This document shows, in pieces, positions 4,890 through 25,177 of a stretch of 64,000 bases of DNA. How positions within the stretch are numbered: the stretch's first letter is position 1; the number at the start of each line of letters is the position of its first letter. Position numbers and translations under genes: made by a program. The notes under the pieces are model-generated. The model did no database searches and was not told the DNA's origin. It worked only from the letters and a program-made list of their open reading frames with translations. Source of the stretch: a virus (Duplodnaviria; Caudoviricetes); the IMG/VR virus record IMGVR_UViG_3300033120_000845, positions 68,414 through 132,413 of that record; one strand, written 5' to 3'.

Positions 4890-7721
4890 ATGAGCAGTTA
4901 CGTTTCAACACAACCAATCCAATACAATCAAACAACTTCCAACATAAATTTACCGTTAACCAACACGGTACTTTCCACTATGGAAGGAAGATATAATCAG
5001 AATAAAGCGCAAATACAACAAGTGTTAGATGCTTACGGTTCTATTGATTTATTACGAGATGAAGATAAGCAATACTTGGCGGGGAAGCTAAATGATATAA
5101 CAAATGAGATAAATCAGTCAGGAAATAGAAACTTGGCTAAATCTTATGTGGCACAAAATATTTTCAGCAAAGTAAAAACTGTTGCCCAAGATGCCGTTGT
5201 TTTAGATGCTATGGAATCCACTTCAAAGTACAATAACTTTGTGAAGCAGGTGCAGGAAACAAAAGAAAAGAAGCCTGAATTATATAACGATGCAAACTAT
5301 AATTTTGCATTATATGAGGGAGGTTTTAATGACTATATGCAAGGGAAGACTAATAAAGTAGGTACTTTGAATTATACTCCATTTAAAGATGTTCAGAAAA
5401 AATTAAATGATGAGATTTACAAAATAGAACAGCTTTCAAAAGAACAAACTATCCAATATATAGATAATGAGGGGTATATTAAAGAGGTGAAAAAACAAAT
5501 GCTTACTCCTGATGAAGTTAGGCAAATAGCAGCATCAAATTTAAACAATGATGATTTTAAACAGATTGAAATCAATGGTTGGGTAAATACAGGAGGATAT
5601 CAAGACACTTCTATTGTAGATAGTGCAAAAGCCTATGTCAAAGAGAAAGTTGATTATAATAGCGCAAAAGCCCTTTCAATACAAGCTCTGATTGACAATG
5701 GAGGTTTAGATAAGGATACGGAAGCGAGTTATAAAAATCAAGTGCAGGCATATACAAATCAAGTAAAAGAATTAGAAAGGTATGGAAACAGTTTATCTTC
5801 AGTAAAACAAGCGGCAAGCTATGTAGAAAAAGAGAGAACTGTTGAAAATGCAGTTAAAACTTTTGGTGGACTACATGTTCAGAGCACTTCTTGGAAAAAA
5901 AATGATGTGTTTTGGGAACAAAGGAATTATGAATTAAAACAAGCGGAGCTTAAATATCAAATAGAGAAAGATGCAAAAGCAGAAAAAGTAAAACAAGCGG
6001 GTGTATCAGATTTAATTGTCAGTAATTTACCATTAACTTCTGAAGAAATGCCAGATATTGATAATTTAGAATCAAAAGTAGATGCTGAAGCAACTATATA
6101 TCAGACTTCTTATGACACTACATTAAAAGAATACAGAACTAAAATAGAAGACTTATCTAAAAAAGGAGATAAGGAAGCCATTGCAGTAATGGCGCTATAT
6201 AAAGAAAATTTAAAAACTCAGACAGAAGCAGATGCATTTTTTAATGCCGCACAAAAACAGATTCAAACAAATAGTGGACTCAGAATTTTAGAAAACAAAG
6301 ATGGAGTACCTACTAATTATATGAGTTTAATTTCAGATAGCAGAAATAAGTATAAAAAATTAATTGAAGCTAAAGTTCAAGCATCAGAAGAAGCTGAAAA
6401 ACAACATACAGACTCCACTATAAACACAGATGAAACCTTTTCCGCATTTTATAATAATCCAAATACAAAGATGATGTGGAAGGATGTAAACGGAGTTGAA
6501 AAAGCAATGCCTGTTTACAAAGTCCTACAAGCTAATGGATTAATGGATGCAAAGGGTAAGAAAATTGGAGACTTGAATGACAAAAAAGAAGTTTTAAACA
6601 CTCTTAAAAAATCATACTATGCGGATAAGATTTTAACCAGAACAAATGAAAATTCAAGAGATACAAGTTGGAGTTCTGTTAGAGAACTTGCTAAAATGTT
6701 TGGAGAAAAAGCTGACGATGTAACTTTTGGTGGAACGATATGGGAAGATACTGTGACATTTAATCCTAAAACAAAAACAGGACAATTTTTATTACAAGCC
6801 AGAAAAAATGGAGTGTATGACACATTTAATTTTTCTGACCAATCCTTGTCTTCGGATGATGCAACAATCGGCAGATTTTTAAAATCTAATTATAGAGAAA
6901 ATGAATCTTACAAACAAAAACTGAAATCTTTATATGGTAATTTACCTTCTAACAAATCAGTTGGAGTTACAAAAGAGGATAAAACTAACTTTGATAGATT
7001 ATTAGAGGTAGCTAAAAGCGATGCCTCTGAAGATAAATTTGCCATTAATAGTAATGCCAACACTATCAATGTAAAACTTGACGGAGATTATGTTGTAATG
7101 TCACAAGTAGAAGGCACAGGAGAAAAAGCTACAGCTACCCAAACAAGAGTACCAAAAGCAGATTTTATAAAAAATGCGCCGGGATTGGCTCAAAAGTTGG
7201 ATTTTGAAACAGAGGCTTCCTTTTATCAACTAGGAAGGATAGATAACTCAGATTTGGTTTCAGAACCAGTTAAATTTTATGGTAAAGAAACATCATCTAG
7301 GCTCTTTAAATACGGAAGTCAAATAGTTTTAAAAGGAGATATCGAAAAATCCGCTTATCTTAGAAAAGAGGACGCTATAAAAAAAATAAGTGCCTTATAC
7401 CCGGGAAATGAAGAGAGTGTAGAAAAAGTTATAGAAAATTCATCAAAATTCAGTTTGAATGGGGAGGTGGGTAAAAATTTTGATGGAAGCTCCTATTTAA
7501 CAATATATTTAAGAAATAGTGAAGGCGGTATTATAGACCAAACTGAAGTTGATAATATTACTAATGTAGATAATTTTAAACAGATTATTGATGAAATTCC
7601 TCAAGTCTATTATGGATATTTTGCTGAAAGAATATTTAAAGACCAATATTACTCAAAAGCAGCTAGTGGAAGGGACAGTGAAACATATACTAAACTAATG
7701 AAAAATATAAATGGAAAATAA
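4890..7721 (+). CDS. Large virion/cargo (putative ejection) protein
   Basis: 943-aa ORF in the giant-protein block; no catalytic motif recognised. Confidence 0.5.
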   Translation: MSSYVSTQPIQYNQTTSNINLPLTNTVLSTMEGRYNQNKAQIQQVLDAYGSIDLLRDEDKQYLAGKLNDITNEINQSGNRNLAKSYVAQNIFSKVKTVAQDAVVLDAMESTSKYNNFVKQVQETKEKKPELYNDANYNFALYEGGFNDYMQGKTNKVGTLNYTPFKDVQKKLNDEIYKIEQLSKEQTIQYIDNEGYIKEVKKQMLTPDEVRQIAASNLNNDDFKQIEINGWVNTGGYQDTSIVDSAKAYVKEKVDYNSAKALSIQALIDNGGLDKDTEASYKNQVQAYTNQVKELERYGNSLSSVKQAASYVEKERTVENAVKTFGGLHVQSTSWKKNDVFWEQRNYELKQAELKYQIEKDAKAEKVKQAGVSDLIVSNLPLTSEEMPDIDNLESKVDAEATIYQTSYDTTLKEYRTKIEDLSKKGDKEAIAVMALYKENLKTQTEADAFFNAAQKQIQTNSGLRILENKDGVPTNYMSLISDSRNKYKKLIEAKVQASEEAEKQHTDSTINTDETFSAFYNNPNTKMMWKDVNGVEKAMPVYKVLQANGLMDAKGKKIGDLNDKKEVLNTLKKSYYADKILTRTNENSRDTSWSSVRELAKMFGEKADDVTFGGTIWEDTVTFNPKTKTGQFLLQARKNGVYDTFNFSDQSLSSDDATIGRFLKSNYRENESYKQKLKSLYGNLPSNKSVGVTKEDKTNFDRLLEVAKSDASEDKFAINSNANTINVKLDGDYVVMSQVEGTGEKATATQTRVPKADFIKNAPGLAQKLDFETEASFYQLGRIDNSDLVSEPVKFYGKETSSRLFKYGSQIVLKGDIEKSAYLRKEDAIKKISALYPGNEESVEKVIENSSKFSLNGEVGKNFDGSSYLTIYLRNSEGGIIDQTEVDNITNVDNFKQIIDEIPQVYYGYFAERIFKDQYYSKAASGRDSETYTKLMKNINGK

Positions 7722-10548
7722 TAATCCCAATCCTATGGGATTTACACCATTAGATTTTAGTAGTGTAACTCCACAGGAAAATTTACAAAGACAACAATTA
7801 CAATCAGTAGGTACAGCTATAAAAGCAAGCTACTCAGAGGATTATTTAAAACTCCTGAACAAAGCTTCGGGGAATGACCCATTTAAAGATTTTGAGGACA
7901 AACGTGTAAAATTTAAAGATTATACAACCTCTTTTGATGCTGTATATGCGCCCCTTTCTGATAACAATTCGTTTGTTGCAAGGTATGAATCGTATTTACC
8001 AAATGTTAATAACGAAGAGAGGCTTGCACGACAACAATCAGCAGGAGAACAGTGGGCTAACGGATTTAGTAAATTAGGTTTAAAGACATTAACAGCAGTT
8101 GGTGGAGGCACGGTTGGTATCGTAGACTCTTTGGTTACAGGAATAAAAGAAGGTAGCTTATCCGCTGCATATAATAGCGATTTCAATAAGTGGTTAGATG
8201 ACCTAAACACTAAAATGGATTACAAACTCCCAAATTACTACACAGAAGAAGACAGAAATAAAAGTTTCTTCAGTCAAATGGGTACAGTTAATTTTTGGGC
8301 TGATAAAGTGTTTGGAGGACTTTCTTTTACTATTGGTGCAATAGGTTCAGAAGCAATTTGGGCTTCGGTAACAGGAGGTACAAGTTTGTTAGCTAAAGGT
8401 CTTGGTGGAGGGTTAGCAAGATTCAGTTCAAGAGCTATGACACCTGCCGCTACAAGAGAGGCTATGGCGGCGTGGAAAGGGATAGCAACAGCACCAATTA
8501 TAGACGCAACAAACGCCGCTAATTTTGCAGAGTCAGCTATAAGAGGAGCTAATATAGCAAAAGCTTTAGACACAGGTCGTTTCTTAGTGACATCTTCAGG
8601 GTATGAAGCAGGTGTAGAAGCTCGCCAATATATGAAACAGACAGAGGTAGATTGGCTTGAAAACTTTGAAAATACCAATGGTAGACAGCCTGATGCTTCT
8701 GAATTAGCGGGATTCAGAGATAAACTTACTTCAGCAGGGAACGTAGTATTTGCAGCGAATGTTGGAATTGTAGGTCTCTCTAACATGCTAACAATAGGAA
8801 AGTTAGTAAGAGGTAAATCAATTTCACCTGATGTTAACAATGGGTGGATGAATAGAAACTTATTTGGAATAGGATTCACTCAAACAGAGGGTGCTGGAAT
8901 AAGAGCTATAGAAGCCACAACAAAACAAAAATTAGCGGGAAGAGCTTATGGGTTACTAAAAGTAGGAGCGACAGAAGGGGTATTTGAAGAAGGTATGCAA
9001 GGAGTGGCTTCAAGGTCAGCTCAAGATTATATCCTTTCAGCCTATGATGAGAATAAAATAAAACAGGGTTACAATATTATTGACAGTATTGCTCATGGAT
9101 TTAAAGAGTCTTACGGTTCTAAAGAAGGTCTTGAAGAAGTTGGAATTGGTGTTCTTGTAGGTCTTATAGGTGGTGGGGGTACTTCTTTGGCTTCGGGTAA
9201 AGGGTTGTTTAATGAGAAGGGCGTTGAAAGAGATATTGTTCAACAAAGAGTTGAGTACTATAATCAATTTCATGCAGACAATTTAATTGAAGCTCAAAAA
9301 ACCCTTGCAAAAGTTTCCGCAGCATCAGAAAGGTCAGATGTAGCAAAAGCTAATGGAGATTTATTTGGGGAGGTAAGAGCAGATACAGATGTAATGTTAG
9401 CTTCCATAGAAAGAAGTCACCAACTTTTAGATTTAGATAGGACTAAACAACAGTATGCCACAGCTTTAAACACGGTGAATAATGAAGAGTTTGCTAAAGA
9501 AATGGGTATTCCTGTTGAAGAAGTTCAGGCTTGGAAAGAGTCAAAATTAGAACAATTCAACACTTTAGTTGACAATTATGACAAAGGTACAAAAGTAGCT
9601 CAAGCATATTTAGGAGATTTTCAAATCAAAGAGATAGGGGATAAAGAAAATGTAGCGAGAGCTATTGCTTACACCTATGCTTCAGGCATGCAAAGTCAAC
9701 AAGCAGAAAAAGACCTCACCGAGACTATTTCTAAATTAGTTGGAGAGGAGTTTGGACAAGGTAAGTTTGAATCAACAATACAAGCAGATTTACTTTTAGA
9801 TAAAGTTGATAAACAAACTTTGATAGAGTTTGAAAGGTTATCAAAATCGGAGCAAGTTTTAATGACGCGGGAGAAAAAGATAACAGAACAAACCGTTGCT
9901 ACCCCAACAAGCCGAGAAGACAATCAAAAAAAAGCAACTAAAGCAGAGAATGTTAGAAGACAACTTTTAGAAGTTACAGACCAATTAGCAGAAGTACGAG
10001 GTAAAAAACAAGCCCTATCTGAAGTAATTAATCTAAACAACACTTCAAATTTACCATTAACAGTTGAAACTTTAGATAGACAAAAAGGAAACTTAGAGCA
10101 ATTGAAAAGAGCTTTAGAATCTTTAAAAGAAACTAACCCTCACAAGTATGCTTTAATTAACAATTTAATTACCGCACAATCTAAAGCAATTGAATCCACT
10201 AAGTCTTTTGATAATATGTTTAGAGATTTAGCTGACCCTAAAAACAGAGTTACAGTTGTTAGAGGATTTTTAGATAAGCTGTTAAAAGCCAGACAAGGTA
10301 AAGACGATTACACTTTCTTTTCAGATATAGCTAAAACTTATGATGAAAGAGATGAACAGTTTATTGAAAAAGTACCAACACAGGAAGAAGATACAGATAG
10401 AGTAGAATTAGCAGAAGAGGAAACCCAACAGCAAGAGATAAACGCTGAGACAGTTTTTGAAGAGTTGAAGACAACAGAATCTGTAAATAGAAGACAAGAG
10501 TTATTAAAACAATTAGAAGAACTAAACATAATTAAATTAAAATGTTAA
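7711..10548 (+). CDS. Large putative ejection protein with Gly/Ala-rich hydrophobic segments
   Basis: 945 aa; membrane-like GIGVLVGLIGGGG segments; coiled-coil C-half; sole Cys is the last residue. Confidence 0.5.
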   Translation: MENNNPNPMGFTPLDFSSVTPQENLQRQQLQSVGTAIKASYSEDYLKLLNKASGNDPFKDFEDKRVKFKDYTTSFDAVYAPLSDNNSFVARYESYLPNVNNEERLARQQSAGEQWANGFSKLGLKTLTAVGGGTVGIVDSLVTGIKEGSLSAAYNSDFNKWLDDLNTKMDYKLPNYYTEEDRNKSFFSQMGTVNFWADKVFGGLSFTIGAIGSEAIWASVTGGTSLLAKGLGGGLARFSSRAMTPAATREAMAAWKGIATAPIIDATNAANFAESAIRGANIAKALDTGRFLVTSSGYEAGVEARQYMKQTEVDWLENFENTNGRQPDASELAGFRDKLTSAGNVVFAANVGIVGLSNMLTIGKLVRGKSISPDVNNGWMNRNLFGIGFTQTEGAGIRAIEATTKQKLAGRAYGLLKVGATEGVFEEGMQGVASRSAQDYILSAYDENKIKQGYNIIDSIAHGFKESYGSKEGLEEVGIGVLVGLIGGGGTSLASGKGLFNEKGVERDIVQQRVEYYNQFHADNLIEAQKTLAKVSAASERSDVAKANGDLFGEVRADTDVMLASIERSHQLLDLDRTKQQYATALNTVNNEEFAKEMGIPVEEVQAWKESKLEQFNTLVDNYDKGTKVAQAYLGDFQIKEIGDKENVARAIAYTYASGMQSQQAEKDLTETISKLVGEEFGQGKFESTIQADLLLDKVDKQTLIEFERLSKSEQVLMTREKKITEQTVATPTSREDNQKKATKAENVRRQLLEVTDQLAEVRGKKQALSEVINLNNTSNLPLTVETLDRQKGNLEQLKRALESLKETNPHKYALINNLITAQSKAIESTKSFDNMFRDLADPKNRVTVVRGFLDKLLKARQGKDDYTFFSDIAKTYDERDEQFIEKVPTQEEDTDRVELAEEETQQQEINAETVFEELKTTESVNRRQELLKQLEELNIIKLKC

Positions 10549-11045
10549 CACCAAGAAAATTACCTGAAGAAGTTTGCAATTTACTAAATTCAAGACTTTA
10601 TGATGAATATGATGCTCATTATACTTATAGAGCCGCATCAAATTGGCTACAAAATAAGGGGTTTGTAAAAGCCGCTGAATATTTTGCAAAAGAAGCTCAA
10701 GACGAGTTAGAACATGCACAGATATTACAAAAATATATTGTAGATTGGAACGATATGCCGAAATTAATGCCTGTTGAAAACGTACCTTCGGATTTTAGAA
10801 GTTTAATAGAAATCATTGAAAAGGCTTATGAAAAAGAGACCAATCTATACGATTTATACATAGAGACAGCTAAAGAAGTTTTTGAAATGAATGAGCTTGG
10901 AACGTACCAGTTTTTACAACAATTCATCGAAATTCAGAATAACTCTGTAATTGAATATTCAGACATGTTTAATGTTTTAGAGGATGTGGATGTAACAGAT
11001 AAATATAAACTTCTAAAATTAGAGGAATTTTTATTTGGAGAATAA
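10542..11045 (+). CDS. Ferritin (non-heme, FtnA-like)
   Basis: 167 aa; EYDAHYTY..AASNW..GF..AAEYF..EAQDELEHA and YEKE..FLQQFIEIQ ferroxidase-type pattern. Confidence 0.85.
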   Translation: MLTPRKLPEEVCNLLNSRLYDEYDAHYTYRAASNWLQNKGFVKAAEYFAKEAQDELEHAQILQKYIVDWNDMPKLMPVENVPSDFRSLIEIIEKAYEKETNLYDLYIETAKEVFEMNELGTYQFLQQFIEIQNNSVIEYSDMFNVLEDVDVTDKYKLLKLEEFLFGE

Positions 11046-11082
11046 ATTTCTTTTTCTTAACTTTGCCAAATAAAATTATAGA

Positions 11083-14000
11083 ATGGCTTGTGAAATAATT
11101 TACAACGGAAAAACATACACTGAACAAGAGTTCATGCAATTTATAAAAGGAGGAGGATTAGATGTAGTATCTAATCTTACCTCCAAATCTGCTTTACAGA
11201 AAAAGATAAAAGACATTTTAAATGGTACAAGTTATGCGCTCCACTATTTTGGTAATGAAGTAGATGAAATATCCGCAAAAAAACCAACAGAAGAGGAGAT
11301 AACAGAGTACCAAACATTATTAGAAAATAAACAATTTAGGTCTCCAAGATATAAAGAACTTCGTCAAAAACTAAATGATTGGCAAATTATTGACGGAACT
11401 ATGGATAATGAACAAAACTCTTCAATTGCAGATTATGTAGAAATGTATAACTCCATTGAGGAAAATGCCAATAATCCACAACAAGGGGAAGTTACGCAAG
11501 TTACAGAATCTGATTATAATGCATTAGACCAAGTGGATGAATCAACAGAAAGAGGGGGATTTGACCCTTACTCTTCTTTATCTACCCCTGACGTAGCATT
11601 GGCTTACAATCCACCAAATAGTGAAAATAAATTACAATTTTCTTATATTAATATTGAAACTTTAGCTTCCTTTTTTCCTAACCATGAAGTGGTGATGTTG
11701 GATGAAAATGGTATTGAAGTTCCATTTGAGAGTAGAAAAGAAATTGGCACAACTTATGTTTTTAAAGGAGTAAATGAAGATTTCCAAGTGAAGGTGGTGG
11801 ATAAGTCCCGCCTTGAAATGGAAGACTCAGATTTTGCTAAAAATGCTGTCGGAGTTAGAATTAAAACATCGGGAGTAAGTGCGTTTAGGACAGTTTTTAA
11901 AGAAGGTGAACCTGTAAAATCAGATTTTGAATTAAAAGATTTCAGCAGAAGCACTGCAAACTCTTTGGAAAAAGGGGAAGAACTCTCTATAATGGTTGAC
12001 CCAAATAATGAATATAATAGACAGGTGTTGTATGATTTAGAAAATGGTAAGATAACAGAAGAAGAGGCAACAAATAAACTTAACATTGTAATGGTTAAGG
12101 ATGGGAATGTTGTTGGTAATTTTACAGCTATTGGAGAAAAACCAAAAGGCTTTCCAACTTTAGATAAGAACAAAGCAATAAGAGAAGAGGCTTTAAAACA
12201 AGCGCGAGGTTCAGTTACACCTGTAACATTATCAGTCAAAGCTAAAGTTAATATGACATTGGTGGGAAATCCAAATACAAGGTTAAACCCTGATGGAAGC
12301 ATAATAGAACAAGAAATATCAATAGACAGTCTTAATAATATTGTGTCTGTAGGTACAATGACAGATAAAGTAGCAGAAGGAAATCATCCTAAAGACACTG
12401 TGTTTGCTTATGTAAATTCAATGTCTACCAAAAATAAAGGAAAGAAGATACCGTTTGTTGTAATACGTTATAATAATAAAAATATTGCTTTCCCTATTTC
12501 AATTAAAACAGAGAATGTTGATAATTCACAAGCATTGTTGAGTATCATCACGTCTTCTTTATCTCCATCACAAAAATCTTTAAAAACAATTGAGTTATTA
12601 AATTCTTTGAAGGTGGACTATTCTGCAATTGATTTTACAAATCCCGCATGGATTCAATCTCAAGCAACTCAGGAGCTATTAGAAGCTTTAAGGTCTGTAA
12701 CCACACCTACGATAACGATTGACTCTTTAAAAGATAAAAATCAATTGGTGGGTAATACAACTATAGGACTTGATTTAGAAAATTTTCCATTTTTTAATAA
12801 CAAAATTTTATTAGAGCTTCCTGAAATATCTACAAAAGAGCAGATTAAAAAAGAAGAAACAGTAGCTACGGTTCAACCTAAAGTTAAAAAAACTAAAGAT
12901 GCTGTTGTTAATAGAGAAGTATTTATAGATGGAAAATCTACGGGATATTTTGCAGTTCCAACAAGTTCCTCTAATACTCCGGGATATATTATAATAGACA
13001 AAAGAACATATAGTAAATGGAAAACCTTAGATGATGAGCAACAACGAATTGTAGAGAGAGAAGAGACTAACGGAATATCGCAAGAACAGAAAGAAAAACT
13101 TAAAAAAGGAGCTGTAATGAAATTTGCAGCAGAAAAAAGAAAATTATTAGGTTTTCAAATCTCTGATGAATTACAAAAAGTAGATGTGTCTAAAATTCAG
13201 GTTGGGGATACAGCTAAGATTGGGGAAGATTTGTACGAAGTTAAGGGTTTTGCTTTTGGACAACCAATGGTTTCATTAAATGGAGAAAAGTCTAAAAAAT
13301 TAAACAGTTTTAAAAACGAAGTTCAGATACAAGATGGTATTTTAAATGAGAAATCTGCATTGTACGAAAGAGCTTTAAATAACCAAGGTGTAAAACAATT
13401 TGGTTATGGGCTCTCAGAATCAGATGCAATTGAAAGTTTTAAAGAGGAAATTATTTCTCCACAACCAAAAACCAAGGAATCAAAAAAAGCAGAGGCTAAA
13501 CAAGGAGAGAATACAAAAATTGAAAATATTGTATATAATAACGATGAATTTGAAGGCTCGTTTTTAGAGGATTATGAATTCCTTGCACAAGGTAGTGAAA
13601 GTACAGTTTATAGAAGTAAAGATGGTTCGCATGTTATTAAAATATCTGAACCTTATACTTCAAAAGAAGAGAGTCTGTATAAGGCAAGAATCGCTAACAC
13701 TTTATTAAGAGAAATTATTGGTAATTCAGGCTTAGAAGTAATTGGTTATTATGAATATAACGGAGTTAAAAATCCAATATTTAAGCAGAATTATGTAGAA
13801 GGAAGGACATTGTCTAAAAAAGAAGTTGAAGATTATTTAAGAACGGTTAAAGGTGTGATTGAGATAGAGGGTAGTTTCTATTTTAGAAACGCAGGTAAAA
13901 TGTACGCCATAGCTGATTTTACAGATAATGTAATTCAAGATGCAGAGGGTAACATAGTTCCAATAGATTTAGATGTATATGAAGTAACAGACCCTAAATT

Positions 14001-14307: not shown

Positions 14308-17300
14308 ATGAGTTGCGGAATAACATACGATAAAAACGGAAAAATAGTAGAAGTCTTAAATGAGCAAGGAAAACCTTCAAAGCTATATAAAGATGCTCTA
14401 AAAGCCACAGGAAGTGAACAGCAAGCTAAAAGACTTTTTCTGTTGACAAAAACCCCTATGTTTAAAGAAGATGTAATAGATGTTGATAATAAAAGACGTG
14501 CTATTCAGATTAAGAAACAAATTTTAGGGGAAAAAGGTGCGCAAAATCTCGACAGAGTAGAAGAAGCTTCTTTTAGAATGGACAATTTACGAGTTGCTAA
14601 AGATATGGAAAAAGCAGGTAAATCTGCTAAAGAAATTAAATTTGCAACTAATTGGGAAAAAGGGGCAGACTCCAAATGGAGATACGAAGCAGAAGACTTA
14701 CAACTAAAACTTGATGAAGTTGAAGTAGATAGAGAGTATAAATTTATAGACATTGTAAAAGAACAAGGGATTGTGAAAGCATATCCTAAATTAAAAGATG
14801 TTAAAATAAAGTTTGAAGATGGAAAAGGATTACACGGAGCACGAATTACAGGAGATGGCTCACTTATTACTATATTTACCCGAAGAGATTTTGTATTCGG
14901 AGGTGAAGAACACGGGATTGAGTCCCTTCTTGGCATTGAAACACCCAACGGAGGAGGAAGGACATATAGATTATCACGAGTGGATATACGAAGTTTGGAG
15001 CACGAAACAACTCACATTGTACAACAACAGGAAGGTTTCAGTAAAGGAGGCAGTCCAAATGATATTAGAGAAGAAGCCTTTAGATTATCAAAAATTAGTG
15101 GAGAAAGTAGACCACAGGTTATTGTAGATGCTTTGGTTAAGACTCTTAAGAATGAAAAAAATGAGAGGAATAGAAGTATCTTGACGGCGACATTGAGTCA
15201 TTTTGTTAGTAACGATATTTTATTAACAGATGAATATAAGAAAATTGCAGGAGAAGTAGAAGCGCGTTCAGTTGAATCAAGAATAGGATTAACTCCTGAA
15301 CAAAGAAGACAATCGCTGTTATCTGAAGAATTAGGTATTTCTCCAGAAGACCAAATATTTTTAGATGGCGCTTTCGATATGCAAAATTTAATTAACCCCT
15401 TAATTAATCGTTTAGAACAAACAGGATTAGCGGATAATGTATATCAGATGTCTTCTAAGCAAATAGAAGAAAAACTTAGAGATATTGGTATTGATGAAGA
15501 CATAGCTAAACAAATATCTGTGTGGCATGGCTCTCCACACTCCTTTAACCGTTTTACAACTGAAAGAATAGGCACAGGAGAAGGTGCTCAAGCTTTTGGA
15601 TGGGGATTGTATTTTACTGATTTGGAGAGTATTGCTAAGAATTACGCAGAAGTGTTATCAGATTCTTCGCTTGATAATTATATAAAAGAGTTTGATGTTA
15701 AGTTAAATACCAAATATGAAAATTTTCACGATATAGCAAATAATTTATCAGAAGGTAAGTTTTTAAACGAGTCTTGGAGAAAAGAGGCGGATAAGTTAAT
15801 TAAAGGAGAGATTAAATTTTACAAAGATGAATATAAAGATGTAGGTATTTCTGATAAAGAAGCGCAAGAAAATTTAAAATTACTTAATGAGTTAATATTA
15901 GATATAAATAATACGCCTAATAAAAACCTTTATAAAGTATCCCTACACAAAGGTAAAACACCTTCTGAATACACTTGGTTAGAGTGGGATAAACCTATAA
16001 ACAAAGACGAAGCAAAAAAGATAGCAGAAGGCTTTGTAAAAAATAACCCAACTAAGTATGTTGATACAGATGCTCAATATCAAGAATCTTTTAGAGAAGT
16101 TGAAAATGAGGATGGTGATATAGATTTAGTAACTGATATCATAAACTCTAAAGAATCTTTAATCAGGTTTTTTACAGGAATGAATGGGAAAGATATTTAT
16201 GATTTTATAAATGATGGATTTTCTAACGAAATATTATCTCAAGAAGAGGAAATATACCAATCAGTTTATGGAAAAGAGAATAACAATCAAAAAGACACAT
16301 CATTATTTTTACTTGAGAACGGCATTGACGGAATAAAGTACCCAACGGAAAGTATATCTCGTGGAGCGACTTCGGATACAGCAAGAGGGTTCAACTACGT
16401 TGTTTTTGATGAAAATGTTATAACAATAGAAGAACAAATACAATTTCAAAAATTAGGAATTGAGTTAACACCAAATGGGTTTACTTATAAAGGCGATGTA
16501 TATTTAAACAAGGATACTTTAACACAAGACACTCCTATTCACGAGTTTCAACATCTTTTCAGCGATTTCCTAAAGAAAAACAATATAGAAATCTACAATA
16601 GAGGTATTGAACTTGTAAAACAAGAGTTAAGTAAATCAAACAGCGAAATAAAAGACATTATAGGATTTGTAAAAGCAAATCAACCAAAATTAAAAGGTGA
16701 AGCACTTTATGAAGAAATTTTAGCGGAACTTGTTGGGAGACGAGGGGTAGAACTTTTAAATTCCAAAAAGAAATCAGGAATCATTAACTGGATTAAGGAA
16801 GCTTGGTCTGAAATAGCTAAAATGTTAGGGTTGAATAATTATTCAAGTGAACAAGTTGCTAATATGACTTTAAAAGAGTTTGCTGATGCTTCTGCTGTAC
16901 AATTATTGAAAGGAGAAAACATTTCAGAAGAATATCCTTTGAAACAAGTTTATGACTATTACCAAGCTAAAAACTACGAAGGTGAAATTTTAAATGAGTT
17001 TGAAGTTGAAGAGGCTAAAGATGTGATGCTTGTAAATAATATTGAGAATTCTAATAAACTGTTTGATAAATTAACAAAGGCTTTTATTGTTGATGGCGTA
17101 TTTAACCCCACAATAAGCTCTTTAAAAACATTTTATTCTGATTTAGAAGTTAGGAGAGCATTTGAAAGTTTAGGCAGCTTAAAAAGCTTCTATTACAGAT
17201 TTAAGAATACAACGCCGTTTGTAAACAATCAAATTGAGTCTGATAAAAGATTTCTATATAGACGTTCTTTTGAAACAAATAGTTTAGGTAAGTTTTCTTA

Positions 17301-18417
17301 TTACAACCCTTTAATTGAACAAGAGAAGTTTAGATTAGAGTTTGGCGGGATAAAAGATGAAATGAGATTTGAAGATAAAAGTCTGTTTGAACAGTATTCT
17401 AAATTAAAAAGGGTTAAAGTAGTGGACAAAAACAATCAGGAAGTTCCACAAAACAAAACTAAAGAATTTTTAGAAATCACTTTAAAAGATGATAGTGACG
17501 GCTCATTTAGAAGAATGATTCGCACACTTTTAAATGCCCCAACAGAATTATGGAATGACGCGGACGTAAGAAAGTTAAAACAGAAGATATACCAAACAGC
17601 AATTAAGCACTCCTTAGATTTAAAATCATTTGAAGATTTAAATGAAAAAGATTCAAGACAATTGATGACAGCTTTGGTAGATGCTTTTGAAACTTCCGAA
17701 TTAGATAATTTTGCAGAGGTTTATGATGAAATTTTTGCTATAAATAAAAAAGCAAGGGAGTTTGTAACCTCTGAAACAAGACCTGTAGTAAAACTGTATG
17801 ATAAAACAAACGATTATAATTTATTTCAACAGTTTGGGTATCTTCCATTAGGTGATAGAGTTTATTTAAAAACAGATGCTTTGGAAAAATCACTACAGGA
17901 AGTAAAAGATATTTTAGGAGAACCTGATGCAAAACTTGTTAAGAGTATTAATTTAGAAGGTGCTGAGAATGTAGATATTGAGACAATGCAAAAAATGGCA
18001 TTATATTCAAAACGATTTAATACGCTTTTAGAAGATAATACAAAACAAGATGAAAAAGTAAAAGGAGAATTCTTTAGCAATTTGTATGGAGAGTATTTAA
18101 AAAATCCAAATAGTCCAGAATATGAAAATTTTATTTTTACAGAAAAAGGATTAGATTACTACATTAACAAAAAAGATAATATAGATTATAGTAAACCTCC
18201 AATTTACACAGGAAATTATTTTAAAGTATCAGAAACAGAAATTCAGGCAGATGAAATACACCCTGAAATAAGAACACAAGACGGAAGAATATACTATCCT
18301 ACATCTAATAATGTATACTCTATAAACAAAGAAGATTATTTAAATAAATATGAACCTCTTGTAAACAATCAACCAATTGTTATAAGAAAAGGTAAAAATG
18401 ATTTGGATTGTAAATAA
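14308..18417 (+). CDS. Polyvalent protein: LPD23-like region, zincin metallopeptidase, ADP-ribosyltransferase-like domain, second HExxH
   Basis: 1369 aa; ATNWEKGADSKWRYE; LEHETTHIVQQQEGFSKGG...AGEVEAR; VWHGSPHSF..F....IGTGEGAQAFGWGLYFTD...GIDGIKY...NYVVFD; TPIHEFQH. Confidence 0.7.
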   Translation: MSCGITYDKNGKIVEVLNEQGKPSKLYKDALKATGSEQQAKRLFLLTKTPMFKEDVIDVDNKRRAIQIKKQILGEKGAQNLDRVEEASFRMDNLRVAKDMEKAGKSAKEIKFATNWEKGADSKWRYEAEDLQLKLDEVEVDREYKFIDIVKEQGIVKAYPKLKDVKIKFEDGKGLHGARITGDGSLITIFTRRDFVFGGEEHGIESLLGIETPNGGGRTYRLSRVDIRSLEHETTHIVQQQEGFSKGGSPNDIREEAFRLSKISGESRPQVIVDALVKTLKNEKNERNRSILTATLSHFVSNDILLTDEYKKIAGEVEARSVESRIGLTPEQRRQSLLSEELGISPEDQIFLDGAFDMQNLINPLINRLEQTGLADNVYQMSSKQIEEKLRDIGIDEDIAKQISVWHGSPHSFNRFTTERIGTGEGAQAFGWGLYFTDLESIAKNYAEVLSDSSLDNYIKEFDVKLNTKYENFHDIANNLSEGKFLNESWRKEADKLIKGEIKFYKDEYKDVGISDKEAQENLKLLNELILDINNTPNKNLYKVSLHKGKTPSEYTWLEWDKPINKDEAKKIAEGFVKNNPTKYVDTDAQYQESFREVENEDGDIDLVTDIINSKESLIRFFTGMNGKDIYDFINDGFSNEILSQEEEIYQSVYGKENNNQKDTSLFLLENGIDGIKYPTESISRGATSDTARGFNYVVFDENVITIEEQIQFQKLGIELTPNGFTYKGDVYLNKDTLTQDTPIHEFQHLFSDFLKKNNIEIYNRGIELVKQELSKSNSEIKDIIGFVKANQPKLKGEALYEEILAELVGRRGVELLNSKKKSGIINWIKEAWSEIAKMLGLNNYSSEQVANMTLKEFADASAVQLLKGENISEEYPLKQVYDYYQAKNYEGEILNEFEVEEAKDVMLVNNIENSNKLFDKLTKAFIVDGVFNPTISSLKTFYSDLEVRRAFESLGSLKSFYYRFKNTTPFVNNQIESDKRFLYRRSFETNSLGKFSYYNPLIEQEKFRLEFGGIKDEMRFEDKSLFEQYSKLKRVKVVDKNNQEVPQNKTKEFLEITLKDDSDGSFRRMIRTLLNAPTELWNDADVRKLKQKIYQTAIKHSLDLKSFEDLNEKDSRQLMTALVDAFETSELDNFAEVYDEIFAINKKAREFVTSETRPVVKLYDKTNDYNLFQQFGYLPLGDRVYLKTDALEKSLQEVKDILGEPDAKLVKSINLEGAENVDIETMQKMALYSKRFNTLLEDNTKQDEKVKGEFFSNLYGEYLKNPNSPEYENFIFTEKGLDYYINKKDNIDYSKPPIYTGNYFKVSETEIQADEIHPEIRTQDGRIYYPTSNNVYSINKEDYLNKYEPLVNNQPIVIRKGKNDLDCK

Positions 18418-18437
18418 TAAATTCATACTTTTGTCTT

Positions 18438-18614
18438 ATGGATAAAATAATGGAAACTTTAAAAGCACTCGGATTTAATGTGGAGAATAAAACTCCCGAA
18501 GAGTGCTTTTCTCTTTTAATAGAGGAATATATTCTACTTTGTCAAGAAATAGAAAAGAGTAACGAAGAACAATTTAAAAAAGAAATACAAAGACTTTTAA
18601 AACCAAATAATTAA
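18438..18614 (+). CDS. Small hypothetical protein (58 aa, below the ORF-track cutoff)
   Basis: MDKIMETLKALGFNVENK...; fills the intergenic gap; its stop overlaps the next ATG (TAATG). Confidence 0.55.
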   Translation: MDKIMETLKALGFNVENKTPEECFSLLIEEYILLCQEIEKSNEEQFKKEIQRLLKPNN

Positions 18615-21600
18615 TGGCTTGTCAAATAGTGTATGATAAACAAGGTAAAATAAAACTTGTTTTAGATAAACAGAAAAGAGAATCTAAGATTTACAATCAA
18701 TTAAAGAGTCATCCTATGATAGATGACCCACTAACAGCGTATACGAACTTTCCTGAAGATATTAAGGATGAGTCTGCGTATAATGTTATACATAAAGTTG
18801 GAGATAAATTTTACAACTCTTATAAAGAGGCTTTAAAAGCCACGAATGAAAATGGTAAGATTGAAATTGTTTTTCAAGGAGAGGGACAGACTAAAGTGTT
18901 GTCCACAATTACAAAATCTACTGATGTAGAGACAAAAGACGGTTTTATTAATTTTTATATTGAAAATAATTTAATCGCTGATAAAAGGAAAAATGGAAAA
19001 TTAACAGGGCAAGGAATTTCAAATAAAGAAAGGCTTTTTAATGCTTTAGAGATTCAAAGATTGGCAGTTTCTACATTGGGAGTGGATTCGTTTAACTTAG
19101 ACTATTATTCATTTGAAATTTCAGAACCAACTTTAGGGAAAACAAAACTGACTCTTAAAAATGGAGAAGAAGTTTTTGTATCGCCCGAAGAAATCACAAA
19201 TATTAACGATTTTAGAAATCCCGAAGAAGCAAATATAGTAAAAAACTATAAAGAGCCTGTATATCGAGATTTACCAAAACCTCAGTCACAATCTGAGGAA
19301 AGTTTGCAACTAAAATTAATGGATGTTCTTAATAACTTAGGAGTATCTGTTATGTCAATTACAGACTATACTAAAAGATATAGAATTAAAAACGGTGTTA
19401 ATCCTTCTGCAAGAGCTTTAGCTGATATTGCTAATGGTGTAATTGCTTTGGAAGAAGGTGTTGCCACTATAGAAGATTTTATTGAAGAGGTGGCTCATTT
19501 TATTGAAAGCGCAACTTCGGCAGAGAAAAAAGAAAACATCCTTAGAAATATTCATAAAACTAAGGAATATATTGAACATGCGGAGGCTTACAGAACTATT
19601 TATTCCGAAGATTATTCAGGAGAAGAATTAGAAAATATTGTGAGAAGAGAAGTTCTTGGAAAAGTGATAAAAAATTCCATTCAAGAAAACGAGCAAAGAA
19701 ACGAAACGGAAAGAAATATTCTTCAAAGAGCTTTTGATTTAATTGTAGATTTCGTAAATAGTATTACCTCCAATAATGAGCTTAAAATATATTTGAATGA
19801 TATTAACGATGCCATAGAACAAAATACTTCGGGACTAATTGACAGGAAAAACATCAACTCAATCTACACATTTTATTCTACTGCCAAAAGTCCTATTACA
19901 AAAGAAGTTTTAAGAATTATTGGACATTTGAATAATGTAAGAACAAATCTACCAAAAACAGACATAGCTTCCATTGTTAAAATAGAGCAACAAATTAATA
20001 CTTCAGAAGAGGTGTATAGTGTTGTGGCACTTTTAGATGTAATTAACCATGCTGTAAAAAAACTACAAAACGCTTTAAAAGATTCAGAAGTGAATAATAA
20101 AGATTATGCTTTCACTTTAGAAGAAACCTCTTTATATTTTGAAACTTTGAATATTGCGGAATCATTGCCAAGAATTGCAGAGGCTTTAAGGTCACAACCG
20201 TTTGAAATCGGCAAAAAAGATTTAAAAGAAGCAACTATCTCAAGATTGCAAGAGGTTAAACAAAATCTTGACACATTAAAAGCACAGAAAGAATCTATTG
20301 TAAATACCACCACTAAAAGAATTGTGGATGAATTGATGCGAGATAGTAATAATCAGCAATCAAGGGAATATTATGAAGAAGCTATTATAAGAGCAAAAAA
20401 TGATGCAACAATCTTGTCTTCAACATTTGGAACTTTAGCAAACTCCACTGATGGTATGTTAAATATTATTGGTAAATTATTAGTTTCGATGACGGGTCAG
20501 GCACATAGAAATATGTATAATGATTATCAAGATTATGTCAATCAAATGGAATCTTTAGGATTTAAAGCTAAGGATGTTGCTGAGTTTTTGGACGGAAACT
20601 ATATGATTTCTGAATTCAATTTAACAGAATTTGATAATGATAATGACAAGGATTTTATCCCTGCTTATAGAGAAATAACACAAGATAGTGAAATAACAGA
20701 TGAAGAAATTATTAAGCAAAAAAATAGCAATTCTTTAAAAATTGATAGCGATATTTTCCAACAAGTTTCTGCGCGAGCTATGGAACTTTCAGATGTCAGA
20801 GTGGAGAAAAGTAGAAAGCCCGAATTCTATGAAAAAATTGAGCAACGTTATCAAAACGCAGGAATAGAAAAAGACAGCCCCACAAGAGCATATCTCAGTG
20901 TATTCCTATCGGAAGTTAGCAAGTTTAAAAATAAAGCAACAGATGAGAACGGCAAAACAGACTACACAAAACTATCCTTACAAGAGTATGAAACTCTAAA
21001 ACAGTTACAACAAGACAGAAAACTAAAAAAGGATTATTTTGATATTACATCAGGAGAACTTAAAAAAGGATTAGAATACAAAGGGCTTGATGAAAAAGGA
21101 AAACCTATTTATACTTTAGCTGATACTAATGTTTCTGATGAGGCGCGTATTGCTTTTGAGTTAAATAAATTAGATGCCCTCACTTTAGAGGAACTTAAAC
21201 AAGGCGGTGATAGAGACAATACAAAAGCATTAAGAGATTTCAAAGATAGTTTAAAAGGACTAAGTAGAGAAGCACAAGTTAGATTTATTGAAGTGAATGC
21301 CACTTTAGGTTTTACAGAGGCTTATTATGAAGCAATTCAAGCTAAGGTTTTAAATGAAGACGGAAGCGTGTCTGACAAGCCGAGTATTCTATCTCAAATG
21401 TTAGAGCAAGGTAAGGATGAGCAAGCTAAAAGATTAGCGGAGATTAATTCTCAAATTAATACTTTACTTAAGGCTTACACAAGTAAAACAAACCCAACAG
21501 AAATTGTTGCCGATGATATTCCTGAAACAACAAAAGAATTAATCAGACAATTACATTCTGAACGCACAGCTATTATTCAAGATTTTTCGGGCGAAACATT

Positions 21601-24112
21601 TGAAACAGAAAGACAAATTGATTTAATAACCGACACTAATGAGTCGTTCAATAAGGAATTAGATAAATACGAAAATTATAAAGATAAACTTCAATTTATA
21701 ATGGATAATACAACAGATGCTGATGCTATGTTGATTAGAAAAATGGAAGTATATTTTGATGAGTTTTTAAAAGGCAATAGAACAAAACCGCCAAAGTCTT
21801 TAGAGCGTTTTTATAGTGGGCAAGAAACAAAAGAAAAAGTTATTTTAGAATATGCGAAAACTAAAGTGTTGCCATACTATAAGAGAACAGCCTCTGATGA
21901 GTATTTCGAGATAGTAAACCGTTTAAAGAATAGCTCGGAAGACATTAATAAAATTATTGATGATATTAATAACTCTGAATTTTTAAAATTACAGCCAAAT
22001 CCATCGTTCTTCACAAAAGAGGAAGATGACAGTTTGAATCCAAATTACAGACCAAACCTAAGAACAGGATGGAGACAACCAAAGGCTTCTTTATATAGAA
22101 ATGCTGACTTTTTTAAACTTTTCGGCGAGGGTACAAAAACAGACGACAAAGGATTTATTATTGTAGAAACAGCATCTAACAAGAAAAAGGCAGAATTTTA
22201 TAACGCCACTTTAGCATTCAGATTTAAAACTTTAGATTATATGGATGTGTCTAAAGGATATAACTATTACACCGCGCCACAAATTAGGGCAAAAGGAGTG
22301 GAAAGATGGGCTAAAATATTTAATGTAGACAATTTGAAGGGTGCTGTTAAAGACCTTACAACATTTACGGAGGACGATATGATTTTAGGGGACAACTCTT
22401 TAGGAACAGACATTAGAATCATTCCTAAAATGTACACTCGAAAATTAGATGACCCTGAAGATATGTCTAAAAACTTATTCACTTCTATGATGATGCAACA
22501 TAATGAGGCAACGTTAAGGGATAGTAGGGTTAAGTATTTAGGACAGATTAATTCTGTTATGGAAACTATTCAGACAAGAGAGCAGTTTAAAGGCAAGCCT
22601 GCTGAAACAACTAATGCTTACAAACAAGCTAAGTCAGCAGTTGATTATGCGGTGTTTGGCAAACAACAAGAGTTCACAATGCCTGTAAAAACAGCTTTAG
22701 GGGAATTTGATGCTGTTAAAGTGTTGCAAGGATTTAGTAGTTTAATTAGGTTTAAAAACTTAGGTGGGTCGGTTGTAATTCCTCTAACATCTGCAATGTC
22801 GGCAAAAGTTGTACAGCAAATTGAAAGAGTAGTTGGGCAATATTACGAGTCTAACACTTACAATTTAGCAACAAAGGATTTCTTAAAACATGTTGCAAAA
22901 GGAACATCTGAGGCGGGTAAAATAAACCAGTCGGCTTACATTAACGTAGCGGGAAGATATTTTGGTTCTTTTGATATGGAAGAGGGGATTAAAAACTCTA
23001 ATTATAGTCCATTTCTAAAAAATCTACCAAGAAGTACAATGGCTTTATATTCTGCCTCAATGTATGGCTTGTTTGGAAAAAACTTATTCTACACATTTAA
23101 AAATACAAGAGTAGTAGATGGTGGTGTAACGACATATCAGAAGTTTAGAGCTAATAACATCGCGCTAAAAGAAAGTGAAATCAAGCAAAAGTGGAAACAA
23201 TATGAAAATGCCACAATTGATAACTATTTCGAGGTAAAAGATGGTAAGATAGTTTGGAATACAGAAAAATTAGGAAAGGATGTTGTGGACTTCAATATTG
23301 AAGACATTGAGAATTCCATTAGAGCGCAAGTGAAAAACCTTAATATCCGAGTGGATAACCAATTATCTAAAGAGGATAAGGTATTGGCTCAAAGACATGG
23401 ATTACTAAATTTATTGATGATTCACCGAGGATGGTTGGTAGCAGCCACAGAAAACAGATTTAAAGGAATGCACCACAATACACAAACGGATATGTGGGAA
23501 GAAGGAAGCTACCGTTCTTTTTATAATTATTTAGGCGGGGTGATAAAAGAATGGAGAAGAAATGGACATAGTGTAGTTAAAGCATTTAAAACAGAGTGGG
23601 ATAACGCAGGTAAATTAGATAATCCCGAATTAACCTATTTGAGAAGAAGTAATCTTAAAAGAGTTGGTATTGAATTCGCAGTTTTAAATACTTTAGCTTT
23701 AGTTTCATTAGTTATACAAGGATATGCAGATGATGACGAAAACAAAGATTTGTATGCTTTACAAATGACTAATCTACTTCTTTACAGAACAGCTTTGGAA
23801 AGTAACTCAGCTTCATTTGGAATTGGAAGTTCATACTCATCTGTAATTGATGACCCACTATTAGCTTGGCAGACTGCAAAAGATTTATCAAAAGTTACAG
23901 ATATTTTTGATTCAGGTGAAATTAGTACAGGAGCTTGGTCAGGTTACACTAAAGGGGAGCAATTCCTATTCAAGAATACGCCATTATTAAAGCAATATAA
24001 GGACATGAGCAATCCATATGAAAAATTCAACTCAACGAAGTATTTTTCAGAGGTTAGAAATAATCAAATGGCAACAGTTCCTTTGTATAATTTCTTAAAT
24101 AAAGAAGAATAA
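18614..24112 (+). CDS. Giant virion/ejection-type protein
   Basis: 1832 aa; degenerate zincin-like IEEVAH; N-terminus similar to that of 14308-18417; hydrophobic helix near the C-terminus. Confidence 0.55.
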   Translation: MACQIVYDKQGKIKLVLDKQKRESKIYNQLKSHPMIDDPLTAYTNFPEDIKDESAYNVIHKVGDKFYNSYKEALKATNENGKIEIVFQGEGQTKVLSTITKSTDVETKDGFINFYIENNLIADKRKNGKLTGQGISNKERLFNALEIQRLAVSTLGVDSFNLDYYSFEISEPTLGKTKLTLKNGEEVFVSPEEITNINDFRNPEEANIVKNYKEPVYRDLPKPQSQSEESLQLKLMDVLNNLGVSVMSITDYTKRYRIKNGVNPSARALADIANGVIALEEGVATIEDFIEEVAHFIESATSAEKKENILRNIHKTKEYIEHAEAYRTIYSEDYSGEELENIVRREVLGKVIKNSIQENEQRNETERNILQRAFDLIVDFVNSITSNNELKIYLNDINDAIEQNTSGLIDRKNINSIYTFYSTAKSPITKEVLRIIGHLNNVRTNLPKTDIASIVKIEQQINTSEEVYSVVALLDVINHAVKKLQNALKDSEVNNKDYAFTLEETSLYFETLNIAESLPRIAEALRSQPFEIGKKDLKEATISRLQEVKQNLDTLKAQKESIVNTTTKRIVDELMRDSNNQQSREYYEEAIIRAKNDATILSSTFGTLANSTDGMLNIIGKLLVSMTGQAHRNMYNDYQDYVNQMESLGFKAKDVAEFLDGNYMISEFNLTEFDNDNDKDFIPAYREITQDSEITDEEIIKQKNSNSLKIDSDIFQQVSARAMELSDVRVEKSRKPEFYEKIEQRYQNAGIEKDSPTRAYLSVFLSEVSKFKNKATDENGKTDYTKLSLQEYETLKQLQQDRKLKKDYFDITSGELKKGLEYKGLDEKGKPIYTLADTNVSDEARIAFELNKLDALTLEELKQGGDRDNTKALRDFKDSLKGLSREAQVRFIEVNATLGFTEAYYEAIQAKVLNEDGSVSDKPSILSQMLEQGKDEQAKRLAEINSQINTLLKAYTSKTNPTEIVADDIPETTKELIRQLHSERTAIIQDFSGETFETERQIDLITDTNESFNKELDKYENYKDKLQFIMDNTTDADAMLIRKMEVYFDEFLKGNRTKPPKSLERFYSGQETKEKVILEYAKTKVLPYYKRTASDEYFEIVNRLKNSSEDINKIIDDINNSEFLKLQPNPSFFTKEEDDSLNPNYRPNLRTGWRQPKASLYRNADFFKLFGEGTKTDDKGFIIVETASNKKKAEFYNATLAFRFKTLDYMDVSKGYNYYTAPQIRAKGVERWAKIFNVDNLKGAVKDLTTFTEDDMILGDNSLGTDIRIIPKMYTRKLDDPEDMSKNLFTSMMMQHNEATLRDSRVKYLGQINSVMETIQTREQFKGKPAETTNAYKQAKSAVDYAVFGKQQEFTMPVKTALGEFDAVKVLQGFSSLIRFKNLGGSVVIPLTSAMSAKVVQQIERVVGQYYESNTYNLATKDFLKHVAKGTSEAGKINQSAYINVAGRYFGSFDMEEGIKNSNYSPFLKNLPRSTMALYSASMYGLFGKNLFYTFKNTRVVDGGVTTYQKFRANNIALKESEIKQKWKQYENATIDNYFEVKDGKIVWNTEKLGKDVVDFNIEDIENSIRAQVKNLNIRVDNQLSKEDKVLAQRHGLLNLLMIHRGWLVAATENRFKGMHHNTQTDMWEEGSYRSFYNYLGGVIKEWRRNGHSVVKAFKTEWDNAGKLDNPELTYLRRSNLKRVGIEFAVLNTLALVSLVIQGYADDDENKDLYALQMTNLLLYRTALESNSASFGIGSSYSSVIDDPLLAWQTAKDLSKVTDIFDSGEISTGAWSGYTKGEQFLFKNTPLLKQYKDMSNPYEKFNSTKYFSEVRNNQMATVPLYNFLNKEE

Positions 24113-24958: not shown

Positions 24959-25177
24959 ATGAGAAATAAAGGGAAAACGCGCCAAGAAATAGAACAATTA
25001 AAAGAATCGCTTGATGAAGGTAAGAAAGTATTGTGTTATGGACTGTTAGAGTCAAATAGATATTTAGACCAACTCGGTAAAGAATATTTAGCAGAAGAGG
25101 TGTTTAGAACAGAGTTTAATATTGAAACAGAACAAGAGGTAAAGACTTTAATTGGTAATAGGCTTTATAAAATATGA
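24959..25177 (+). CDS. Hypothetical protein
   Basis: Tightly packed ORF in the + operon. Confidence 0.5.
   Translation: MRNKGKTRQEIEQLKESLDEGKKVLCYGLLESNRYLDQLGKEYLAEEVFRTEFNIETEQEVKTLIGNRLYKI

Follow-up and report, generated by a model that had tools for sequence, protein, structure and literature searches.

Four giant proteins encoded on the plus strand of a tailed bacteriophage genome (Duplodnaviria; Caudoviricetes) contain cysteine exclusively at their extremities, in an arrangement consistent with their association into a single thread. Their genes occupy positions 7711-24112 of a stretch of 64,000 nucleotides, hereafter the window, which corresponds to the right-hand half (positions 68,414 to 132,413) of the 132,413-bp virus record IMGVR_UViG_3300033120_000845, and consist of four large open reading frames (ORFs), ORF2, ORF4, ORF5 and ORF6, with a small ferritin-like gene located between ORF2 and ORF4. 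It is reasonably probable, in our opinion, that these proteins are internal cargo or ejection proteins joined tail-to-head, in the order ORF2-ORF4-ORF5-ORF6, into a linear chain most likely held together by disulfide bonds, for which we infer docking of the successive members, towing and reductive release. The nearest cultured relatives of the phage are the Cellulophaga phages phi4:1 and phi17:2 (Lightbulbvirus), at 30-35% identity, and the closest homologues (P0002 and P0003) reach 55% identity; the four proteins probably represent a set that a Flavobacterium-type phage packs in its head and injects. The crAss-like and related phages inject megadalton amounts of protein via a narrow tail, e.g., an RNA polymerase or, in the present case, kinase-, protease- and ART-like effectors. 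If true, a covalent tether joining heads to tails would explain the order and the stoichiometry of this delivery, the avoidance of cysteine in the chain proteins, the freedom with which their genes are fused and split, and the separation of the proteins once inside the host.

The four proteins total 5220 amino acids and contain six cysteines, each located at most three residues from a terminus, whereas about 80 would be expected from the 1.53% cysteine content of the minus-strand genes taken as a baseline (binomial P ~4e-27). In a notation where H denotes a head cysteine (at most 8 residues from the start) and T a tail cysteine (at most 10 residues from the end), the pattern from ORF2 to ORF6 reads T, HT, HT, H and belongs to the general form T (HT)n H, with any number n of HT members. 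The recount agrees exactly with the initial annotation, which had reported cysteines confined to the termini over some 5200 residues: ORF2 ends in KLKC, its sole cysteine being the last residue, ORF4 starts with MAC and ends in EDCK, ORF5 starts with MSC and ends in LDCK, and ORF6 starts with MAC and possesses no C-terminal cysteine, so that the first member carries a tail cysteine only and the last member a head cysteine only. The likeness of the N-termini, also noticed initially, corresponds to 56% identity over 27 residues between the heads of ORF5 and ORF6 (E 3e-7), whereas the short head of ORF4, MACEIIYNGKTYTEQEF, belongs to a second type (type B) shared with the Leptolyngbya phage Lbo-JY46 (52% identity over 25 residues).

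Conservation in related phages, proposed at the outset as a check of the pattern, extends far beyond chance. Relatives were collected by an alignment-based scan, which yielded 80 phi4:1-like loci from IMG/VR, taken with 10-kb flanks; a scan of viral contigs with a single protein gave no matches, and an alignment was required as the query. All 80 loci are compatible with the form T (HT)n H and comprise two to four members, heads and tails being always equal in number, and the single odd one (L022) looks like a miscalled start codon. Among the homologues of ORF6, which cover 22-55% identity and 1259-3072 amino acids, a cysteine occurs at positions 2-6 in 109 out of 110 and is the sole cysteine of the protein in 90, for a total cysteine content of 0.06%; the corresponding head motif reads M-x-C-x-[IV]-x-[YR]-N-x-x-G-x-I-x-x-V. 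More generally, 89 of 94 non-redundant, complete, cysteine-poor giant ORFs exhibit terminal cysteines. At 25-35% identity, phi4:1 follows the identical rule, with gp38 (1957 aa) containing a last-residue cysteine as its only one, gp37 containing Cys4 and Cys516 out of 517 residues, and gp35 (1914 aa) containing Cys3 only. In phi14:2, g067 (1797 aa) ends with a cysteine, the crystallised virion RNA polymerase (vRNAP) g066 (2180 aa) possesses Cys3 and Cys2179, g065 (1421 aa) possesses Cys3, and no others are present. The crAss001 phage displays a T protein (gp47), an HT protein with one additional internal cysteine (gp50) and an H protein (gp49), DAC15 shows the same grammar as crAss001, crAss002 fits it if gp33 is taken to begin at Met33, with an MSC head, and Lbo-JY46 represents the two-member form (a 1552-aa T protein followed by a 2748-aa H protein). 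Nearly all of 76 further Crassvirales loci also fit; the succession HT then H is seen outright in 57 of them, with a gp47-like tail also visible in 49, and in the Crassvirales loci from the gut the terminal cysteines are retained despite several internal ones. Taken together, some 150 loci of related phages retain the terminal-cysteine grammar.

This conservation bears upon one of the alternatives, namely that ejected proteins avoid cysteine and that the terminal residues are neutral leftovers or an inherited quirk. Cysteine suppression is indeed known in the ejection proteins of N4-like phages (PMC11445570), but these proteins lack terminal cysteines as well. In addition, at 22-30% identity no residues are better conserved than the terminal cysteines, newly created termini acquire them, and they are encoded by both TGT and TGC, so that such an explanation appears almost negligible. 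A signal acting at the nucleotide level was likewise rejected, as the cysteine may lie anywhere between 2 and 8 residues from the start or between 0 and 10 from the end, and either codon may encode it.

Further evidence comes from phages in which the same proteins are fused or split. In at least 14 complete relatives, the regions corresponding to ORF2 (~60-875) and ORF4 (~30-580) are collinear on a single protein of 1633-2399 amino acids whose sole cysteine is C-terminal, and in the loci L003-L007 the C-terminal part of ORF5 also belongs to this fused protein. Because ORF2 and ORF4 form one protein in these relatives, the split found in the window is identified by comparison as a derived fission, the two new ends of which both carry a cysteine: ORF2 has acquired a Cys-ending tail, and ORF4 a MAC head of 25 residues. 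Conversely, the long homologues in which ORF5-like domains are fused to the ORF6 core possess one head, right at their N-terminal end, and are devoid of the junction cysteines and of the region equivalent to ORF6 residues 1-45/65. The 3600-aa gp47-vRNAP fusion (L154) and the gp33 fusion of crAss002 similarly lack the junction cysteines. In these natural cases, a cysteine pair is present exactly where the peptide bond is absent.

These fusions also help to decide which ends are paired. The cysteine parity would be identical if each HT protein were closed on itself, head to own tail, with the tail of the first member joined to the head of the last one. Such a pairing is very improbable, since the natural fusions leave a single possible pair, either T1-H2 or T2-H3, as in crAss002 gp33 and the 3600-aa protein of L154, and these are the pairs of the chain; moreover, the pair solved in the cyanopodophage A4, discussed below, consists of the tail of the upstream protein and the head of the downstream one. 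Four loci with a vRNAP distributed over two ORFs (L109, L114, L116 and L137) and without cysteines at the resulting pseudo-termini were considered as counter-examples and discarded. The break falls inside the conserved motif IGYR..PTEGKYSMAPL, and in L114 the gap contains a group I intron (RF00028, positions 14942-15176, 47.1 bits, E 1.5e-10), for which reasons these genes are regarded as interrupted by introns rather than as truly split proteins, and they serve as a negative control. The apparent exceptions L124 and crAss002 gp33 turned out to be miscalled start codons.

With respect to their composition, the tails are mostly acidic, with a mean net charge of -1.5 over the last 20 residues, and the heads are mildly basic (+0.8). 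The motifs of heads and tails vary among the junctions of one phage but are constant for a given junction across phages. In the Crassvirales, for example, a tail ..SQEERDQAxKCxxF goes with a head MSCLxITPEIRELAKK, and a tail ..NGDSICGAPTLYSL goes with a head MARSCAIIPKVKN. Since the motifs are junction-specific, a specific pairing of the ends is favoured over random oxidation. A confident AlphaFold2 model of residues 1-150 of ORF6, built from 45 sequences (mean predicted local distance difference test, pLDDT, 89.8), places Cys3 just ahead of a β-hairpin (residues 4-7 and 13-17) that is followed by a helix (residues 25-31). Fold searches with this model by Foldseek and VIA-align gave nothing significant, with a best VIA-align Z of 3.6; the one pertinent row, a weak one, corresponds to the N-terminus of the phi14:2 vRNAP (6VR4, residues 2-94; Z 3.2, root-mean-square deviation 3.5 Å over 71 residues). 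Comparison of the ORF6 family with the PDB sequences, using phmmer and a profile search, also gave no real match. A PDZ-like domain, considered for the ability of PDZ domains to bind C-termini, gave weak Foldseek rows (E 0.5-2) that VIA-align, in which no PDZ was listed, did not confirm. Other interpretations of the heads were set aside: a split intein or a remnant of a protease site does not agree with the absence of the Pfam intein families, the size of the heads (25-60 aa) and the lack of cysteine in the fused proteins; and a lipoprotein lipobox is excluded by the lack of a signal peptide ahead of the cysteine.

Alternatively, each terminal cysteine could anchor its protein elsewhere, e.g., on the portal or the inner surface of the capsid, or serve as a modification or packaging signal, the equal numbers of heads and tails being a by-product. 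This view draws on the lack of an observed bond in this lineage and on crAss001, some cargo segments of which are attached to the portal and to the tail barrel (PMC10172136). However, the missing head cysteine of the first member and the missing tail cysteine of the last one, the paired loss at fused junctions and the paired gain at a new split, and the junction-specific tail and head motifs are all left unexplained by separate anchors, which makes this explanation decidedly unlikely. With the exception of a bridge made by a metal ion, all the rival explanations of the chain are disfavoured by the fused proteins and by the specificity of the motifs for their junctions.

A structural precedent for a tail-to-head link exists in the cyanopodophage A4 (Anabaena phage A-4L), whose structure determined by cryo-electron microscopy shows the C-terminal helix of gp27 docked in gp26 (Hou et al., PNAS 2025, PMC12002296). 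A disulfide bond occurs there between Cys1715 of gp27 and Cys5 of gp26 in the internal pre-ejectosome, where it was treated as a local staple of the pentameric core and not as the expression of a general terminal-cysteine rule or of a chain of several proteins (PMC12002296). In the A-4L genome, gp27 (1717 aa) and gp26 (1114 aa) contain a single cysteine each, i.e., the bonded ones, and gp29 contains none. As in the window, the giant ejection proteins of A4 are encoded by adjacent genes, and the bonded cysteines are located two residues from the C-terminus of gp27 and at position 5 of gp26; at the window junctions as in A4, the sole or last cysteine of the upstream protein is a few residues at most from its C-terminus, and the sole or first cysteine of the downstream one a few residues at most from its N-terminus. 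In contrast, A4 has one link and the window would have three. A4 is regarded as an analogue because no sequence homology with the window proteins is detectable: BLASTP of gp26 and gp27 against them gave nothing better than E 0.01, and an hhalign comparison between gp26 and the ORF6 family a probability of 0.1%.

In the mechanism that we favour, the C-terminal, mostly acidic and Cys-ending tail of each protein would dock on the N-terminal head module (a β-hairpin and a helix) of the next one, and the tail and head thiols would form a disulfide bond once the particle meets an oxidising milieu. The product would be linear and unscrambled, because the links occupy the very ends and the proteins contain no further cysteine. 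The resulting unbranched thread could then cross the portal and the tail channel in a partly unfolded state, each protein towing the next, until the reducing cytoplasm of the host opens the links and frees the separate enzymes, namely a kinase, zincins, an ART-like domain and a gp49-like protein. The head-to-tail linking of consecutive proteins put forward initially has thus gained strong comparative support and the A4 disulfide as a precedent, and the role in ordered packaging or ejection that was attached to it keeps its conjectural status. As for the agreement of the chain with the gene order, it holds in the window without being essential, since the first member is encoded on the opposite strand in both crAss001 and DAC15.

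Several points weigh against this disulfide-linked chain. The sole solved bond is that of A4, whose gp26 and gp27 are without detectable homology to the window proteins, and the disulfide in the present phage and its detectable homologues is suggested by comparison and by the A4 example. Virions are assembled in a reducing cytoplasm and many of the relatives live in the anoxic gut, which makes the timing and the occurrence of the oxidation uncertain. Cysteine counts taken alone permit other pairings, and the model of the head domain, the fold searches with which gave no significant match, does not demonstrate a groove for the binding of a tail. The reducing cytoplasm at assembly and the oxygen-free habitat of the gut relatives would better suit a link made without oxidation, in which a metal ion (Zn, Fe or Cu) is shared by the tail and head cysteines and by additional carboxylate ligands; Asp, Asn or Glu often precedes the tail cysteine (EDCK, LDCK, FNC, FDC), and sets of 2, 4 or 6 cysteines suit pairwise sites. 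However, two thiolates alone make a poor metal site and neither a conserved His nor a second conserved Cys occurs nearby, the only solved case, A4, is a disulfide, and the ferritin gene of the first junction is not conserved in the relatives. A metal bridge is accordingly viewed as unlikely, and disulfide bonds remain the preferred kind of link.

Among the closest known systems is the RNA-polymerase cargo block of the Crassvirales (g067-g066-g065 in phi14:2, gp47-gp50-gp49 in crAss001), which is packaged in the virion and obeys the same grammar (T, HT, H), ORF2 being homologous to gp47/g067 and ORF6 to gp49/g065. The two blocks differ by their middle part, made of a vRNAP with a DFDxD motif in the Crassvirales and of two effector-type members in the window. 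The three proteins of the phi14:2 polymerase block were reported to be fused in some phages, with no mention of cysteines (bioRxiv 10.1101/2020.03.07.982082). The atlas of the crAss001 virion describes structural disulfides in tail and portal-vertex proteins and proposes that the cargo is ejected from N to C in a partly unfolded state, and makes no mention of the cysteines of gp47, gp49 and gp50 (PMC10172136). The gp38-gp37-gp35 set of phi4:1 and phi17:2 consists of three members, following the same rule and all identified as virion proteins by tandem mass spectrometry (MS/MS); compared to this set, the window possesses an extra junction with a new cysteine pair and an inserted ferritin gene, ORF2 and ORF4 being jointly the counterpart of gp38. 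Finally, the Schitoviridae provide giant ejected proteins, a virion RNA polymerase among them, that are nearly devoid of cysteine (N4 gp50-52 and DEV gp71-73), a suppression ascribed to the passage through the periplasm (PMC11445570). In contrast to these proteins, in which no terminal cysteine is conserved, those of the window retain the six cysteines of their termini.

In the biosynthetic field, the docking domains of polyketide synthases and nonribosomal peptide synthetases are short C- and N-terminal modules that fix the order of polypeptides and are lost upon fusion of the modules; they are non-covalent and unrelated in sequence, and the resemblance is one of analogy only. As a wider proposal, tentative but to be taken seriously, the crAss-related podophages and, by convergence or deep ancestry, the A4-like cyanophages would share a portable cysteine connector, made of an acidic Cys-ended tail and a hairpin-helix head with a leading cysteine, capable of stringing together any number of giant cargo or effector proteins. 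The thread would be ordered and cleavable by reduction, and the connector would replace a peptide bond, so that splitting, fusing or shuffling the genes, or interrupting them with morons, would leave the delivery unaltered, the thread being ejected in the N-to-C direction before the DNA or along with it. Such a connector could double as a natural, reversible tag for protein ligation. For A4, one tail-head disulfide linking two ejection proteins has already been published. Targeted searches of the literature did not retrieve a statement of a general terminal-cysteine rule, nor a description of an extensible and conserved grammar in the Crassvirales, the Lightbulbvirus-like phages and the Leptolyngbya phage, of portable connectors, or of a four-member chain carrying effectors. 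Particular to the window are the four-member chain, its effector-type middle members and the lack of a DFDxD RNA polymerase.

Turning to the individual members (Table 1), ORF2 contains Gly-rich hydrophobic segments, and its C-terminal ~45 residues look helical when the sequence is inspected by eye. The protein shares homology with the N-terminal half of phi4:1 gp38 (35% identity, E 6e-144), with crAss001 gp47 (E 7.5e-10) and with phi14:2 g067 (E 7e-6), and matches phrog_32390 over positions 61-867. Residues 31-579 of ORF4 match residues 916-1484 of phi4:1 gp38, and a Kinase-PolyVal domain follows at residues 807-966 (42.3 bits, Pfam cut-off 27). ORF5 contains an LPD23 domain (39.2 bits, cut-off 27), two HExxH motifs (residues 232 and 745) and a weak ART-PolyVal match (26.7 bits, under the cut-off of 31.2), and aligns in its C-terminal part with phi4:1 gp37 and with the middle members of the relatives. 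As giant multidomain proteins in which a PolyVal or an LPD domain exceeds its Pfam cut-off, ORF4 and ORF5 fall among the polyvalent proteins, and their kinase, zincin and ART-like domains point to effector-type middle members. ORF6 matches phi4:1 gp35 over its full length (30% identity), and its C-terminal 650 residues match crAss001 gp49 (E 5e-10). The annotation of phi4:1 gp38, gp37 and gp35 as virion proteins comes from MS/MS proteomics; together with the similar annotation of the phi14:2 homologues, it suggests that their counterparts in the window are located in the virions.

Table 1. Chain members and associated open reading frames of the window, with the position of their cysteine residues.
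Feature	Position	Strand	Length (aa)	Cysteines and other characteristics
Three upstream giant ORFs	32-1495 (ORFa), 1495-4803, 4890-7721	+		Cys-free; homologous to phi4:1 gp41/gp40/gp39 virion proteins
ORF2, first chain member	7711..10548	+	945	Tail Cys945 only (codon 10543-10545)
Ferritin-like gene	10542..11045	+	167	Pfam Ferritin PF00210, 73.2 bits
ORF4, second chain member	11083..14307	+	1074	Head Cys3 (11089-11091), tail Cys1073 (14299-14301)
ORF5, third chain member	14308..18417	+	1369	Head Cys3 (14314-14316), tail Cys1368 (18409-18411)
Small ORF	18438..18614	+	58	2 Cys; in the 196-nt ORF5-ORF6 gap (junction 3)
ORF6, last chain member	18614..24112	+	1832	Head Cys3 only (18620-18622)

The possibility that ORF6 is a virion RNA polymerase was ruled out, as it lacks the DFDxD motif and matches gp49/g065, which are associated with the RNA polymerase. 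The D[FY..]DxD motif is missing from all seven giant ORFs of the window, so that no two-barrel RNA polymerase of the DFDxD type is detected as the middle member of this block, and phi14:2 g066 found no match in the 132-kb genome by a single-sequence search, which a very divergent enzyme could escape. The first and last members are clearly of the cargo-block type, i.e., gp47/g067-like and gp49/g065-like, with tblastn matches to the crass "RNAP subunit" genes. The phage is thus without a detectable DFDxD virion RNA polymerase, yet it has retained the gp47-like and gp49-like partners.

The ferritin-like gene of the first junction, the ATG of which overlaps the Cys codon and the stop of ORF2, was not found at this junction in the relatives and stands outside the chain. 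The 58-aa ORF of the third junction, which gave a weak PHROG match only (E 0.004) and the stop of which overlaps the ATG of ORF6, is probably also foreign to the chain. Small genes occur at chain junctions elsewhere, such as the SLOG-like gp36 in phi4:1 and an ORF of ~315 residues starting with MNVLSLFDG in L022 and L034; from these examples and the ferritin-like gene of the window, the chain junctions seem to be favoured insertion sites for accessory genes. Upstream of the chain, the three Cys-free giant ORFs gave PHROG matches to "virion structural protein" and are probably additional internal or ejected virion proteins devoid of covalent chaining; zincin-type HExxH motifs also occur twice in ORFa (residues 20 and 286). 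The chain is directly followed by an HNH endonuclease (24184-24957, 8 Cys) and a protein of the YpsA/SLOG family (25174-25641), and a strand switch accompanied by a flip of the GC skew is located near 26.4 kb.

Depending on the phage, the chain proteins differ in their internal cysteines, which are absent from those of phi14:2, phi4:1, Lbo-JY46 and A4, from marine or freshwater environments, and of the phage of the window, and number 1-6 in the gut phages crAss001, DAC15 and crAss002. This difference may be a signal of redox ecology, the sample being small and the habitat of the window's phage not known. In two Crassvirales loci (L085, 9270-9366, corresponding to crAss002 gp33, and L124, 17181) the called starts lie 16-32 codons upstream of the conserved M-x-x-C head, and the terminal-cysteine rule could help to correct the start codons of chain genes. 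Two other Crassvirales loci (L135 and L158) gave a vRNAP match and contain no ORF of at least 600 residues under translation table 11; a reassigned stop codon is probable in both.

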